Shown here: in pieces, positions 55 through 4,584 of the stretch
Layout of the letters: each line of letters opens with the position of its first letter
Numbering within the stretch: position 1 is the stretch's first letter
Virus record (IMG/VR): IMGVR_UViG_2529293148_000011
DNA length: 9,637 nt
Reading direction: 5' to 3' (one strand)
From: a virus
Taxonomy: Duplodnaviria; Heunggongvirae; Uroviricota; Caudoviricetes
The notes under the pieces: generated by a model
Told to the model about the DNA's origin: nothing
Seen by the model: the letters and a program-made list of their open reading frames with translations, nothing else
Databases searched by the model: none
Program-made: the position numbers and the translations under genes

Positions 55-324
55 ATGAGCGAACAGTACCTGATAACGCTCGACGAGTGGAAACCAAAAC
101 GGTTCAGTCTCCCAATAACAAACACTACCCTGGTGAAATACGGAAAACTAGGATACATCGTTCCAAGACCACAAAAAATTCGTGGGCGTTGGCTGATAGA
201 TCGCCGGGCAGTATTTGTTGGACCTGGTGAAACGGGAATTGCGCCGGAAATTCATACTGGCGATGATGATGCACTGAAGGAGATTTTAACTCATGTCACC
301 GAGGCCACGAAAAAACAGCACTGA
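55..324 (+). CDS. xis: Excisionase (Xis-like, lambda/e14 type)
   Basis: ATG at 55 preceded by GGAG at 43-46. N-terminus MSEQYLITLDEW resembles lambda Xis MYLTLQEW. Small basic protein directly upstream of int, overlapping it by 32 nt as in lambda. The frame is open back to the window edge, so a longer upstream start (track uses GTG at 46) cannot be excluded. Confidence 0.75.
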   Translation: MSEQYLITLDEWKPKRFSLPITNTTLVKYGKLGYIVPRPQKIRGRWLIDRRAVFVGPGETGIAPEIHTGDDDALKEILTHVTEATKKQH

Positions 325-1411
325 CGTAACCGGTCTTTACGAAAAGTTTGATCGCAGAACTGGCAGGGTTTACTACCAGTATAAAAACCCTGTGACTGGA
401 AAATTTCACGGTCTCGGAACAGACAAAGGCAAAGCAGAAAAAATCGCTTCCACAGCCAATCAGCGAATAGCTGCAGCAGAAGCTGAATATTTCATGCGCA
501 AAATTGATGAAAGTCCGTCAGCAACAAAACGTCGGGGCATCAGATTAAAGGCATGGGTTGATCGATATCTGAAAATACAGGACGCGCGACTGAAAAATGG
601 AGATATTGCAGCTACAACTCACAAAGAAAAAACTCGAATGGCTGCATACCTGGTTTCCCGTCTGGGAAACCACCCATTGAAAGAACTGGAAGTAAGAGAC
701 TTTGCATTAATACTGGATGAGTGGCTGGATAAAGACATGGTCAGCACAGCGAGAGTAAATCGTGGATTATGGGTTGATATTTATAAAGAAGCACAGCATG
801 CAGGGGAAGTTCCTCCTGGATGGAATCCTCCGGAGGCTACCCGTAAACCGATCCCTAAAGTAACCAGAGCCAGGCTCACCATGGAAGACTGGCAAAAAAT
901 TTACAATGCAACGCCTGAAAAACACTTTATCCGTAACGCAATGCTTCTTGCGATTGTTACTGGTCAGCGCCGTGATGACATTTGCCACATGCGTTTTTCA
1001 GATGTGTGGAACGAACACTTGCATATCACCCAGGGAAAAACCGGAATGCGTCTGGCGTTACCGCTTACACTACGCTGTGATGCCATTGGGATAACGTTAA
1101 AAGAAGTTATTGATGGGTGCCGAGACAGAATATTAAGTCCATATCTAATCCATAGTCGGCACCAGAAACAACCGAAGCCGATGAGTAAAGACAACCTGAG
1201 CGACTACTTTGCCAAAGCACGGGATCTGGCTGGGATAATTCCACCAGCAGGAAAAACTCCGCCAACATTTCATGAACAACGCTCTCTATCAGAACGGCTG
1301 TACCGTGCACAGGGTATCGATACAAAAACATTACTAGGGCATAAAGTCCAGGCAACCACCGATCGCTATAACGATACTCGAGGTCAGGAATGGGTTAAGT
1401 TGGTTATTTGA
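293..1411 (+). CDS. int: Tyrosine site-specific integrase, lambda Int family
   Basis: 372 aa. C-terminus HEQRSLSERLYRAQGIDTKTLLGHKVQATTDRYNDTRGQEWVKLVI parallels the lambda Int catalytic region (H-x-x-R, LLGH, Y) as recalled. AAGGAG lies upstream of the ATG at 293. Resembles e14 IntE from memory. Confidence 0.95.
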   Translation: MSPRPRKNSTDVTGLYEKFDRRTGRVYYQYKNPVTGKFHGLGTDKGKAEKIASTANQRIAAAEAEYFMRKIDESPSATKRRGIRLKAWVDRYLKIQDARLKNGDIAATTHKEKTRMAAYLVSRLGNHPLKELEVRDFALILDEWLDKDMVSTARVNRGLWVDIYKEAQHAGEVPPGWNPPEATRKPIPKVTRARLTMEDWQKIYNATPEKHFIRNAMLLAIVTGQRRDDICHMRFSDVWNEHLHITQGKTGMRLALPLTLRCDAIGITLKEVIDGCRDRILSPYLIHSRHQKQPKPMSKDNLSDYFAKARDLAGIIPPAGKTPPTFHEQRSLSERLYRAQGIDTKTLLGHKVQATTDRYNDTRGQEWVKLVI

Positions 1412-1474
1412 CAAACACCATATGGAATATCCGTCACCATCTCAGGAAAAAAGTGTTGTAAAATGCGTGGCCTA

Positions 1475-1510
1475 GTTTTGGGGAAACGTTTTGGAGAGAT
1501 TTTGGAGAAA
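1475..1510 (+). repeat. Three tandem direct repeats of GTTTTGGRGA (1475-1484, 1488-1497, 1500-1510); candidate integrase arm-type sites
   Basis: Read directly from the sequence, period 12-13 bp, non-coding, about 65 bp downstream of the int stop. Confidence 0.4.
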
Positions 1511-1629
1511 GGAAAAAATTGAATAAATTCAAAATCCTGAAAGTGTCCCGCCTTATGAATAAGAAGGTGAGCGAATTAGATGATTAATCCTTTATATTCA
1601 ATGCATTAAGTTTGTTTTTGAGTGGTTTT

Positions 1630-1647
1630 GCCGTTTAATGTAACGGC
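1630..1647. other. Inverted repeat GCCGTT-TAATGT-AACGGC; candidate att core
   Basis: Perfect 6-bp arms around a 6-bp AT-rich spacer, in an AT-rich region between the two clusters of GTTTTGGAGA motifs. The geometry resembles tyrosine-recombinase core sites. Confidence 0.3.
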
Positions 1648-1683
1648 GTTATAGATCCTATCAAAATCAATCAATTCCGTTCT

Positions 1684-1710
1684 GGTTTTGGAGAAAGATT
1701 TTTCGAGAGC
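1684..1710 (+). repeat. Fourth GTTTTGGAGAAAG motif copy plus a degenerate copy; candidate arm-type site on the other side of the core
   Basis: GGTTTTGGAGAAAG at 1684-1697 is identical to the third unit of the 1475-1510 cluster, in the same orientation. Confidence 0.35.
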
Positions 1711-1752
1711 TTCGGTCTTTAACTAAAACTGATTGCGTATAATCCCAATACC

Positions 1753-1782
1753 CCTCCCCGACTATCTGAATGGTCGGGGAGG
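1753..1782 (-). terminator. GC-rich hairpin (10-bp perfect stem CCTCCCCGAC/GTCGGGGAGG, 10-nt loop) downstream of the tfa remnant
   Basis: Lies 37 nt 3' of the tfa-remnant stop on the - strand. No clean U-tract follows, so it may be a decayed terminator or an RNA processing site. Confidence 0.35.
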
Positions 1783-1818
1783 CACTTCAAGCACAAAATA
1801 TCATCCCTGCGCCGTTGA

Positions 1819-2049
1819 TTACTCTGCAGGTGAAGTCGGCCACTCAATATCAGGTGCAGTTGATGTATCAACACGATTCAACAATACCCGATATTTATTC
1901 CATGCCTCCAGCAACGATCTTTCTTCCTCCTTTGCGATTTCCAGATCTACAGCATCCTGCAGTGGCGCAATATACTCACTGAATTCCTGGGTGTAGAACT
2001 GTGTGGTGACGGTCTTCCAGCCATTCGGCTCCTGCTGTATCGAAGCATA
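1819..2049 (-). pseudogene. tfa: Tail fibre assembly protein (lambda Tfa type), 3' fragment without a start
   Basis: The - strand translates as ...[53 protein letters not shown]-stop, matching the conserved lambda/e14 Tfa C-terminus. The frame is closed by TAG at 2050-2052 with no ATG or GTG, so only about 77 codons remain. Not in the ORF track because it has no start. Confidence 0.7.
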
Positions 2050-2141
2050 CTAGGCTATTTCAATATCGCTATGCTGCGGCAGCATTTAACCCCTTGTAAT
2101 TCATCGCCATAATTGATTTAATTCACAAACAAAACTATAAC

Positions 2142-2810
2142 ATGGTGAAATTAATGAAAAAAAACACAGATGATGGGGCTAAAATTTACACACCACTTAC
2201 CCTAAAGCTTTATGACTGGTGGGTTTTGGGAGTATCAAATCGGCTTGCATGGGGATGTCCTACAAAGGAATACCTTCTTCCACACTTTCTGGAACATTTA
2301 GGTAACAACCATCTGGATATTGGTGTTGGAACTGGGTTTTACCTTACTCACGTACCTGAGAGTAGTCTGATATCTTTAATGGATTTGAACGAAGCTAGCC
2401 TGAACGCGGCATCTACAAGGGCTGGGGAATCAAAAATTAAACATAAAATTAGCCATGATGTTTTTGAACCTTATCCCGCGGCGTTACATGGTCAATTTGA
2501 TTCCATTTCCATGTTTTACCTTCTTCACTGCCTGCCTGGAAATATATCTACAAAAAGCTGTGTAATACGCAATGCGGCGCAGGCCTTAACTGACGATGGA
2601 ACTCTATACGGAGCCACAATTCTTGGCGATGGAGTTGTGCACAATAGCTTCGGTCAAAAACTGATGCGCATTTACAATCAGAAAGGCATCTTTTCAAACA
2701 CAAAAGATTCCGAAGAAGGCTTAACGCATATACTCTCAGAGCATTTCGAGAATGTTAAAACCAAGGTTCAAGGTACTGTAGTAATGTTTTCCGCTTCAGG
2801 GAAAAAATAG
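2142..2810 (+). CDS. Class I SAM-dependent methyltransferase (small-molecule type), likely cargo/moron gene
   Basis: Motif I LDIGVGTG and a post-II-like FDSISMFYLLHCLP. No DPPY/NPPY or PCQ DNA-methyltransferase motifs. The ATG at 2154 has a better SD (GGTGA at 2144-2148) than the ATG at 2142. May correspond to e14 YmfD, but that is an unverified recollection. Confidence 0.8.
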   Translation: MVKLMKKNTDDGAKIYTPLTLKLYDWWVLGVSNRLAWGCPTKEYLLPHFLEHLGNNHLDIGVGTGFYLTHVPESSLISLMDLNEASLNAASTRAGESKIKHKISHDVFEPYPAALHGQFDSISMFYLLHCLPGNISTKSCVIRNAAQALTDDGTLYGATILGDGVVHNSFGQKLMRIYNQKGIFSNTKDSEEGLTHILSEHFENVKTKVQGTVVMFSASGKK

Positions 2811-2817
2811 CATCCAA

Positions 2818-2850
2818 CCGCAGCACGTTCTTGCTTAAGACGTGCTGCGG
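2818..2850 (-). terminator. Hairpin (10-bp stem CCGCAGCACG/CGTGCTGCGG, 13-nt loop) between the convergent methyltransferase gene and the pin/tfa remnant
   Basis: Lies 15 nt 3' of the - strand remnant stop. On the - strand a T-run follows after 10 nt (TTGGATGCTATTTTTT). Confidence 0.4.
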
Positions 2851-2864
2851 CATAATCCCAATGA

Positions 2865-3191
2865 TTACTCCATGACAGGGTTCGTAGGCCACTCAATATC
2901 AGGTGCAGTTGATGTATCAACACGATTCAGCAACACCCGATACTTTTTCCAGGCTTCCACCACCAGCACGACAAGATGCCGCATACAGTGACCCAGTCAG
3001 TCCAGTTTCCAGACAACCAGTGCGTCACCTTTTTGAAGGCGCTTTAAAGCACGTTTTAATCCAGGTCGGCCTGTCCTTGTTCCGCTTTATTTATCTTCAA
3101 ATATTTGTTCACATCCTGCACAAACAAGAGCGTTTCGTTGCAGGTCTGTATTCTGGTCATTTGTTGATACCCTTACATAACCAATCAGCAC
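2865..3191 (-). pseudogene. pin: Serine DNA invertase (Pin/Gin/Hin/Cin family) N-terminal remnant fused to a tfa 3' end; two in-frame stops
   Basis: From GTG at 3191..3189 (SD GGGAGA upstream) the - strand reads VLIGYVRVSTNDQNTDLQRNALVCAGCEQIFEDK[84 protein letters not shown]. The first ~77 codons match the invertase N-terminus including the catalytic-serine region. Stops are TAA at 3089..3087 and TGA at 2999..2997. The last ~31 codons are a Tfa C-terminus. Confidence 0.75.
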
Positions 3192-3245
3192 ACTGAATCT
3201 CCCGTCCAAAAGCGCAAATCATGCCATGCAGGCCGGATACGGCCA

Positions 3246-3271
3246 TTATCTAAAACCTCGGTTTACAGGAA
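3246..3271. other. Din-family invertase crossover site (gix/pix/hix-like): TTATCTAAAACC TC GGTTTACAGGAA
   Basis: Two 12-bp half-sites, TTATCnAAAACC and GGTTTACAGGAA (reverse complement TTCCTGTAAACC), around a 2-bp core; this fits gix as recalled. It sits 55 bp upstream of the pin start and abuts the orphan fibre segment. Confidence 0.6.
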
Positions 3272-3649
3272 ACGGTAAATCAGGCTTCTGGCGCATTACA
3301 GAAAAACCAGAACGGTGCAGATATTCCGGTAAAAGATACCTTCACCAAAAATATTGGTGCCTGCCGCGCATATAGAGCATGGCTGAATATTGGTGGCGAT
3401 AGTCAGATCTGGACAACCGCGCAATTTATTTCGTGGCTGGAGAGTCAGGGGGCATTTAACCATCCTTACTGGATGTGCAAAGGCTCATGGGCTTATGCAA
3501 ATAATAAGGTTATTACAGATACAGGTTGCGGAAATATTTGTCTTGCAGGTGCTGTGGTGGAAGTTATTGGCACTCGCGGCGCAATGACCATACGCGTTAC
3601 TACTCCGAGTACGTCCTGCGGCGTCTGTCGCCCATTTTTCCGAAAATAA
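3254..3649 (+). pseudogene. Orphan variable C-terminal segment of a tail fibre protein (Sv-type, Mu/P1/e14-like), no start codon
   Basis: A 132-codon open frame starts inside the crossover site: NLGLQETVNQASGALQKNQNGADIPVKDTFTKNIGACRAYRAWLNIGGDSQIWTTAQFISWLESQGAFNHPYWMCKGSWAYANNKVITDTGCGNICLAGAVVEVIGTRGAMTIRVTTPSTSCGV... This Gly/Trp/Cys-rich sequence is characteristic of invertible-segment fibre tips as recalled. A TAA at 3251-3253 inside the site closes the frame upstream. Confidence 0.5.
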
Positions 3650-3788
3650 ATGCTCCGACAATACGTGCCACATAACCTGCACCGTAGGTTCCCATTGCCA
3701 GAATTAACGCCATTGCCGTTGATGATTCAGGAAAAAATATTTCATGAAACACTAACGCTGCGCCGAGCGAATATAACTGGAAACCCAT
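3600..3788 (-). pseudogene. N-terminal fragment (TM1-TM2) of an MFS metabolite:H+ symporter-type transporter
   Basis: 62-aa ORF MGFQLYSLGAALVFHEIFFPESSTAMALILAMGTYGAGYVARIVGAFIFGKMGDRRRR... resembles the N-terminus of ShiA/ProP-type MFS proteins (ALVFNREFFP...FGHFGDRLGRKR in ShiA as recalled). An in-frame TGA lies immediately upstream of the Met, and the ORF ends inside the fibre-tip segment, so only about 60 codons of a roughly 430-codon gene remain. Confidence 0.45.
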
Positions 3789-4008
3789 GATTCATAGATA
3801 TTTTTTACCATCCTGTGGATTTCTGGGCGTTTTCTAAGTTTTTTTAAGATGGTTGTATTTTTTCTAAAAACTCCTGAACTCGATTTTGCTGTTTGTCTGA
3901 GGCCTTTTTATGTCCCATATATGCCCCAAGGTGCCCCATGTAAATCCAATTCAACTCAAAGCGTCCATGTTCAATATTTTTACAAGGGGCTGGCATATCA
4001 ATGTTTTT

Positions 4009-4584
4009 TTATTGCGTAACGTCAAACGCTCGGATTGAGCGTAAATCATCAAGATTATTCAGTTCTTCCTTCATCTCCCGCTGACGCTGATAAATCTCGT
4101 TATTGCGATCGACCTGTGCCTGCGCCATTGCTGTCGCCAGTTCTTCCAGTTCCGGCATTGACAGTTTCACCTGTTGATTATCGGCATCACCCCATGCAAG
4201 GGCGGTTAGTGCCGTATCAGATTTCGCCGCCATTACTACCGGATAAAGACGGGCCATTGAGTCGGGGCCAGCGTTCCAGGTGCGACCGTTCCATTCAAAG
4301 GTGAACGGCAGTGCTTCCTGTTCTGTGCGCCATGCCTCGATTTCCTGCTTTTTGGCATCCTTCGCCGCGGCGATAAGTTCCGGCGTGACAGTGAAAGGGG
4401 CGATTTCGCCCCATTTGCCGTTCTGCAACTCTTCCCAGATGCGCTGGCCTGTCGGTGCGGTATCATCCTGCATGGCGGTATACGGGACGAATTCCGTTTC
4501 ACCTTCAAATAACACCTCGCAGTCAACCGCACCATTTTCAAGATAATGGGCGTTTCTGATGCCCTTTACCGCTCTGATTTTCAT
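4009..4584 (-). CDS. tfa: Tail fibre assembly protein / chaperone
   Basis: 191-aa ORF starting 13 nt after the stf stop, with SD GGGGAA. Size and position immediately 3' of the side tail fibre gene match Tfa-type chaperones. The C-terminus lacks the [16 protein letters not shown] motif, so it is a different Tfa subfamily from the two remnants. Confidence 0.7.
   Translation of the reverse strand: MKIRAVKGIRNAHYLENGAVDCEVLFEGETEFVPYTAMQDDTAPTGQRIWEELQNGKWGEIAPFTVTPELIAAAKDAKKQEIEAWRTEQEALPFTFEWNGRTWNAGPDSMARLYPVVMAAKSDTALTALAWGDADNQQVKLSMPELEELATAMAQAQVDRNNEIYQRQREMKEELNNLDDLRSIRAFDVTQ

Follow-up and report, generated by a model that had tools for sequence, protein, structure and literature searches.

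What does the one gene left intact in a decayed stretch of prophage DNA encode, and does it serve the phage or the lysogen? We address this question for a sequence of 9,637 nucleotides (nt) from the IMG/VR virus record IMGVR_UViG_2529293148_000011 (Caudoviricetes); this whole stretch is referred to as the window. Between the integrase gene int (293..1411) and an intact tail-fibre assembly gene on the minus strand (4009..4584), the sole intact gene is an open reading frame (ORF) that an earlier note, made from the letters alone, had read as a methyltransferase dependent on S-adenosylmethionine (SAM). The full explanation that we favor, at a probability of about 0.7, is that this gene encodes a stand-alone small-molecule class I methyltransferase, is carried as a one-gene moron, and is the orthologue of Escherichia coli ybcY.

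The identity of the gene is clear. The ORF listing gives an ATG start and 222 amino acids (aa) with no internal stop, and a profile search matches the product to PHROG_2132 over its entire length (positions 1-218 of 218, E = 3.5e-156). The database holds 2296 homologues at E <= 1e-3, an exhaustive search returned 193 matching cluster representatives at E <= 1e-30, and the 222-aa form is the dominant protein cluster (P0002, 6589 members). The ORF is an intact orthologue of ybcY and PHROG_2132, far beyond a chance reading frame, and the clean frame claimed for it is confirmed. Genes of this type are already known and are annotated in most E. coli genomes, yet they are uncharacterised.

The plausible Shine-Dalgarno sequence that had also been claimed holds for an internal start codon and fails for the annotated one. 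Upstream of the ATG at 2142 (ACTATAAC ATG) there is no Shine-Dalgarno sequence, whereas GGTGA stands ahead of the in-frame ATG at 2154. Because the PHROG_2132 profile and nearly all aligned homologues of other genera begin at this codon, Met5, and because GGTGA precedes it, the true start is probably ATG 2154, which would give a protein of 218 aa encoded from 2154 to 2810.

Several independent comparisons point to the same fold and to the same broad chemistry. In an alignment of 36 homologues with 59 invariant columns, SAM-binding motif I is present as LDIGVGTG (residues 58-65), as had been noted before; D59, G61, G63, T64, and G65 show no variation, and L58 and V62 hardly any. Outside the motif, H57, D81, D106, H129, and D189 are invariant, while C39 and C130 are nearly invariant. 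Acidic residues are found where class I methyltransferases carry them, D81 at the end of strand 2 and D106 after strand 3. The AlphaFold2 model, built with the 36 homologues, has a mean predicted local distance difference test (pLDDT) score of 90; its seven strands form a class I fold, with two helices at the N-terminus. Its top Foldseek matches in the PDB are PmtA, JHAMT, phosphoethanolamine methyltransferases (PfPMT), SgvM, and NodS. A single-sequence search of the PDB recovers only JHAMT and UbiG (E ~1e-3), and a 60-sequence profile recovers, over the SAM core only, NodS, CysG/BelI, XrdM, and JHAMT. Among profile families, the generic Pfam models Methyltransf_12, 23, 25, and 11 are the only ones above their cut-offs; no NCBIfam family exceeds its cut-off, the best being CpaM, RquA, and PmtA at 13-17 bits. 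On the predicted structure, the protein is a class I Rossmann-fold SAM-dependent methyltransferase of the small-molecule type.

The features expected of a DNA methyltransferase are absent from the protein and its surroundings. Neither (D/N/S)PP(Y/F/W) nor PC(Q/H) occurs in the protein, and the only ENV, at residue 203, lacks a PC partner. Pfam gives no match to a DNA-methyltransferase family, and there is no adjacent nuclease ORF. With motif IV absent, an orphan DNA methyltransferase is rejected. The earlier note had called the gene small-molecule type and had proposed a Pfam search and a structure prediction as checks; both now favor its assignment, since generic methyltransferase families match and DNA-methyltransferase families do not, and since the nearest solved structures are small-molecule enzymes.

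A different possibility is that the enzyme methylates RNA or protein, for example by a tRNA or rRNA modification that alters translation or antibiotic susceptibility in the lysogen. We regard this as unlikely. The 218-aa protein has only a short aromatic helical cap and no RNA-binding extension, and no NCBIfam RNA-methyltransferase model matches it. Moreover, in one metagenomic protein of the YbcY family (P0250, 719 aa), the methyltransferase domain (11-222) is fused to a cytochrome P450 domain (265-689), a fusion that points to small-molecule chemistry.

The comparison with two carboxyl O-methyltransferases, CysG and BelI, brings the active site into focus. These beta-lactone biosynthesis enzymes hold a catalytic metal via His122-His123-Asp191, and their nearest PDB relative is 3dtn (PMC11408123). 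In CysG, Asp77 binds the ribose, Asp102 binds the adenine, and Arg22 binds the substrate carboxylate (PMC11408123). Using the CysG sequence translated from Table S1 of that paper, hhalign aligned our 60-sequence profile with CysG at a probability of 96.8%. The window protein shares with CysG/BelI and with 3dtn (MM_2633, uncharacterised) the class I fold, a length of about 220 aa, and aligned SAM-contact residues. Specifically, LDLGAGTG of CysG aligns with motif I, and the Asp residues of LLLQDRS and IRVADHL, which correspond by position to CysG Asp77 and Asp102, align with D81 and D106. The first metal ligand, His122, lies opposite the invariant His129, and an N-terminal helix with Tyr-Asp sits at the equivalent place. 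However, His123 is replaced by Cys130 in the window protein (the codons for His129-Cys130 are at 2526-2531), and CysG Asp191 falls past the end of the hhalign alignment, where the candidates in the window protein are Asn186 and Asp189. In the Tyr-Asp register against Y24-D25-W-W-V28, set by eye outside the hhalign alignment, the position of Arg22 appears to be taken by the nearly invariant Val28. Identity over the SAM core is only ~21%, and the window gene lies outside any biosynthetic cluster. Therefore, a malate-type substrate is unlikely to be common to the window protein. Membership of the CysG/BelI family is rejected, as the His-His-Asp metal motif is not present. By analogy, His129-Cys130 would lie at the catalytic center and is perhaps a metal site. 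Across the YbcY family, a hint of such a site comes from His129-Cys130 in combination with two invariant residues, H57 and D189, and with C39, which is nearly invariant.

The structural neighbor PmtA (PDB 8ys9) is the best Foldseek match (E 5e-12, template modelling score 0.62-0.66) and is of similar size. PmtA shares with the window protein an N-terminal helix over the active site, and a His after strand 4 is present as well, like His132 of PfPMT. In contrast, identity to PmtA is 16%, and no evidence points to membrane association, or to phosphatidylcholine in E. coli lysogens. The NCBIfam PmtA model, NF045882, reaches 15.6 bits (cut-off 390) over the SAM core only, so that PmtA family membership is likewise rejected.

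The gene is widespread in the host species. Of 5426 complete E. coli genomes, 3832 carry it at >=95% DNA identity, in up to four copies each. In K-12 MG1655 the match is ybcY of the DLP12 prophage (99% DNA identity), which lies between the tfaD' and tfaX' fragments next to appY-ompT, carries the same promoter hexamers, and gives a full-length profile match. Unlike the intact window copy, K-12 ybcY is a frameshifted pseudogene according to RefSeq ('putative uncharacterized protein YbcY' in UniProt), and its downstream cargo is appY-ompT-envY, whereas in the window the gene is neighbored by a dead invertase and by att and int from another prophage. The same tfa'-methyltransferase-tfa' block recurs in an enterotoxigenic E. 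coli (ETEC) prophage at potB and in the plaque-forming lambdoid phages 2G7b, ev243, and the PhiR series. In DLP12, the ETEC prophage, and the lambdoid phages, homology to the window spans ~1838 to 2962, running from one tfa 3' end to the other.

Beyond E. coli, the family extends across the Enterobacterales (56-70% identity) and, at 43-55% identity, to Pseudomonas, Xanthomonas, Dyella, Burkholderiaceae, Vibrio, Nostoc, Pseudarthrobacter, Oceanobacillus, and myxobacteria. The source names of ten distant cluster representatives are generic, and in a further member, P0167, the methyltransferase is joined to RCC1 repeats. The orthologues of Enterobacter, Salmonella, and Erwinia (56-66% identity) are solitary chromosomal genes in unrelated neighborhoods, and relatives at 45-66% identity likewise stand alone on chromosomes, both within the Proteobacteria and outside them. 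No conserved neighbor or partner gene was found in the phages, the E. coli prophages, the plasmid, or 75 chromosomal loci of other genera. When the neighboring ORFs of these 75 loci were clustered, the recurrent ones were generic only (short-chain dehydrogenase/reductase, LysR, glutathione S-transferase, and, in a few lineages, a chemoreceptor) and lay at variable distances.

The gene and its putative signals also move as a unit of ~0.82 kb. A Citrobacter chromosome copy matches 1999-2822 at 91.5% in blastn, and the Salmonella copies in plasmid and insertion sequence (IS) contexts match 2085-2816 at 87.4%. The plasmid-like Salmonella contig AAEOTI010000059.1, which encodes CcdAB and KfrA, carries a copy of 88% identity, and another copy lies among IS elements. 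These plasmid-like and IS-context copies indicate that the methyltransferase gene travels outside phages too. The GC content of the unit (1999-2822) is 41%, compared with 52-55% for the tail genes, and the gene is opposed to the tail operon. A promoter scan places two pairs of hexamers directly upstream of the gene, a promoter-like region that is kept in the non-phage Salmonella and Citrobacter copies. One of the pairs, TTGATT-17-TATAAC, is listed as a constitutive RpoD promoter of K-12 ybcY, with an H-NS mark, in a study by genomic SELEX (systematic evolution of ligands by exponential enrichment; PMC3946193).

On the 3' side, 8 nt past the methyltransferase stop, a hairpin (2818-2850) separates the convergent 3' ends of the methyltransferase and tfa' genes. 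It has a perfect stem of 11 bp and a folding free energy of -25.2 kcal/mol (z -4.46), and none of 200 shuffled sequences was as stable. A canonical T-run is absent on the plus strand. The hairpin is probably a transcription stop or barrier, and it begins almost exactly where homology to the non-phage methyltransferase copies ends; its appearance is that of a terminator belonging to phage tfa and lying outside the imported gene. A 45-aa ORF on the minus strand (2755-2892) overlaps the methyltransferase 3' end and is called 'hypothetical protein' or 'nucleocapsid protein' in E. coli genomes in RefSeq; it is probably a spurious call. The methyltransferase gene is flanked by direct repeats at 1835-1913 and 2884-2962, which are 90% identical and represent the 3' ends of the two tfa fragments. 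Recombination between these repeats would remove the gene, and the same flanks could spread it among lambdoid phages.

The gene thus has the look of a moron, in that it is single, has putative signals to itself, and is exchanged together with them. The observations behind this probable classification are the promoter-like hexamers, the hairpin without a T-run, the 41% GC content, and the unit common to non-phage copies; its autonomous transcription is predicted. The gene resembles the known morons at the tail-fibre end of lambdoid phages (lom, bor, and the ompT/appY block of DLP12) in several respects: it is a single gene of lower GC content that has a promoter-like region to itself, lies past the tail-fibre genes, and passes between phages as a unit. 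The products of those morons, unlike that of the window gene, which would be a cytoplasmic enzyme, are envelope proteins or regulators whose phenotypes in the lysogen are known.

The position of the gene raises the question of whether it serves the phage itself: the enzyme might methylate part of the tail fibre or the receptor on the host, or might counter host defences in the course of infection. The tail-fibre-end region is a known site of host-range and anti-defence cargo, and in many lambdoid phages, some of them plaque-forming, the gene keeps a constant place by tfa and stf, in keeping with such a role. However, the gene is opposed to the tail operon, has its own promoter-like region, and is separated from tfa by the hairpin. 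Furthermore, its chromosomal orthologues are solitary, and at the loci with neighbors examined no phage genes lie near them. No phage structural family matches the protein, and no PADLOC defence model does so above chance level (the only match, to mad2, has E = 0.015 and 12 bits, and no partner gene is present). A role in the phage's own cycle is therefore very improbable. The position by the tail-fibre genes, recurrent in DLP12, phage 2G7b, and the ETEC prophage, and the lack of a partner gene had both been proposed in the earlier note, and the wider survey bears them out.

As a plausible mechanism for the preferred small-molecule methyltransferase, the gene would be transcribed in the lysogen from a sigma-70 promoter, independently of the phage late genes and in a manner that H-NS could silence. 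The protein would bind SAM via G61/G63/G65, D81, and D106, and the substrate would be held under an aromatic N-terminal helical cap formed by Y24-D25-W26-W27, W37, and C39. The methyl acceptor would then be an O, N, or S atom, or else an activated C, in a metabolite or xenobiotic that is small and probably hydrophobic or aromatic. By analogy with CysG/BelI, His129-Cys130, possibly with Asn186 or Asp189, may act as the general base or as a metal site. The benefit would fall to the host, through modification or detoxification of a compound, and not to virion assembly.

Several observations weigh against this reading. The idea of a metal site comes from a two-residue sequence alignment that ends before the Asp, and Arg22 of CysG appears to be replaced by Val28. 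The promoter is a consensus match together with an in vitro SELEX report for another allele. The literature naming ybcY contains no functional study and reports no substrate, activity, or phenotype; deletion of ybcY left Hha toxicity unchanged, and a strain evolved in the laboratory for tolerance to ethanol carries, with other mutations, a 12-gene deletion that takes in ybcY. The other mentions treat the gene as a landmark near ompT or as an entry in a microarray table, and nothing relevant was found in the literature on methyltransferase morons adjoining tail-fibre assembly genes. Truncated variants are frequent in the protein database, e.g., P0030 (161 aa, 445 members), and these variants, together with the K-12 frameshift, imply that the gene is dispensable in at least some lineages.

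The same truncations, the frameshift, the loss by deletion in the evolved strain, and the silent Hha assay would be expected if the gene were a functionless hitchhiking relic, frequent only through the recombining tfa homology blocks of lambdoid prophages, and the setting of the window copy amid a graveyard of pseudogenes fits that picture as well. We nevertheless consider a relic distinctly unlikely, because the gene is under purifying selection. The ratio of nonsynonymous to synonymous substitution rates (dN/dS) of the window copy is 0.18 against Citrobacter (dS 0.23) and 0.16 against Salmonella (dS 0.41), and the Citrobacter and Salmonella copies compared with each other give 0.22. In addition, the reading frame in the window is intact while every neighbor is broken, the dominant form in the database is the 222-aa one, the unit is kept on a plasmid and on chromosomes without tfa flanks, and ancient chromosomal orthologues exist in many phyla.

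Table 1 Features of the methyltransferase locus and its surroundings in the window.
Feature	Position	Strand	Remarks
Host potB 3' end = att core	1556..1587	+	Last 32 nt, TAA stop 1585-1587; between int and cargo end
tfa' copy 1, pseudogene	1819..2049	-	C-terminal 76-aa fragment; contains left direct repeat 1835-1913
Single-gene unit (promoter-like region + coding sequence), ~0.82 kb	1999..2822	+	Common to non-phage copies
Promoter-like region	2086..2141	+	TTAACC-16-CATAAT (2086-2113); TTGATT-17-TATAAC (2113-2141); promoter scan
ybcY-type class I SAM-dependent methyltransferase ORF	2142..2810	+	222 aa as annotated; ATG start; intact
GGTGA, Shine-Dalgarno-like	2144..2148	+	5 nt upstream of in-frame ATG 2154; read from sequence
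SAM motif I codons, LDIGVGTG (residues 58-65)	2313..2336	+	36-sequence alignment
Hairpin	2818..2850	.	8 nt past methyltransferase stop; between convergent methyltransferase and tfa' 3' ends
tfa' copy 2	2865..2957	-	C-terminal 30 aa, in-frame fusion to dead invertase; overlaps most of right repeat 2884-2962
Pin-type (Pin/Gin) serine invertase remnant	2997..3209	-	N-terminal part only; in-frame stops 3087-3089, 2997-2999
gix/pix-type invertase crossover site	3246..3271	+	TTATCTAAAACCTCGGTTTACAGGAA; one mismatch to Mu gix
Truncated alternative tail-fibre tip (Sv'-like)	3252..3623	+	Frame open, cut at 3623
Host ydfJ (major facilitator superfamily transporter) 5' fragment	3624..3790	-	Matches ydfJ pseudogene at end of Stx2_499 record

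The surroundings of the gene (Table 1) agree with the earlier description of it as the only live gene in a decayed region: the tfa' copies, the invertase, the fibre tip, and the ydfJ piece are all broken. The RefSeq equivalent of the first tfa' copy is annotated as 'tail fiber assembly protein, missing N-terminus'. The dead invertase joins the second tfa' copy at about 2957 (minus strand, 2865-3209), and its RefSeq equivalent is a 'recombinase family protein' of 73 aa. The gix/pix-type site is the sole match to the Mu gix sequence in the window, and none of 200 shuffled sequences gave a match. In many E. coli genomes, DNA 97% identical to 3210-3623 carries the annotation 'tail fiber protein'. 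Taken together, the crossover site (3246-3271), the Pin-type invertase (2997-3209), inactivated by a deletion and by two nonsense codons, and the truncated alternative fibre tip (3252-3623) resemble the remains of an invertible switch of tail-fibre host range, with no second crossover site remaining in the window.

The ends of more than one prophage appear to meet here. The gene ydfJ is a known prophage insertion target, and its fragment at 3624-3790 marks the end of a different prophage. From 1556 on, the window aligns to an ETEC chromosome, beginning inside potB, and the position of the potB end between int and the cargo resembles an attP or the junction of tandem lysogens. The xis-int-att-tfa' junction is also present in enterohaemorrhagic E. 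coli O26 chromosomes. Because prophage pieces lie on both sides of the ydfJ fragment, the region 1412-4008 does not represent the b region of a single phage; it combines the ends of two or more prophages with a piece of host ydfJ and a potB att core. No complete E. coli genome and no phage record contains the window as a whole, the best coverage being ~43%. At the window edge, gene J is unbroken and runs off the end in frame.

The window alters nothing in the existing picture, as ybcY, 'class I SAM-dependent methyltransferase', and PHROG_2132 are annotated in thousands of genomes. The residual interest lies in a gene that is among the commonest prophage cargo of E. coli (~70% of complete genomes), under purifying selection, and mobile, yet functionally uncharacterised. 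In contrast to the frameshifted K-12 allele, the intact window allele is the right starting material for biochemistry and genetics. A bolder extension, which we consider doubtful and rather unlikely as it stands, is that the YbcY family represents previously unrecognised, widespread metal-assisted (His-Cys-Asp/Asn) small-molecule methyltransferases, and that the phage copy gives lysogens a selectable trait, for example by methylating a toxic heterocycle, a thiol-reactive compound, or an antibiotic. If true, such a trait would explain why a one-gene cassette is present in ~70% of E. coli genomes and has moved among phages, plasmids, and chromosomes.

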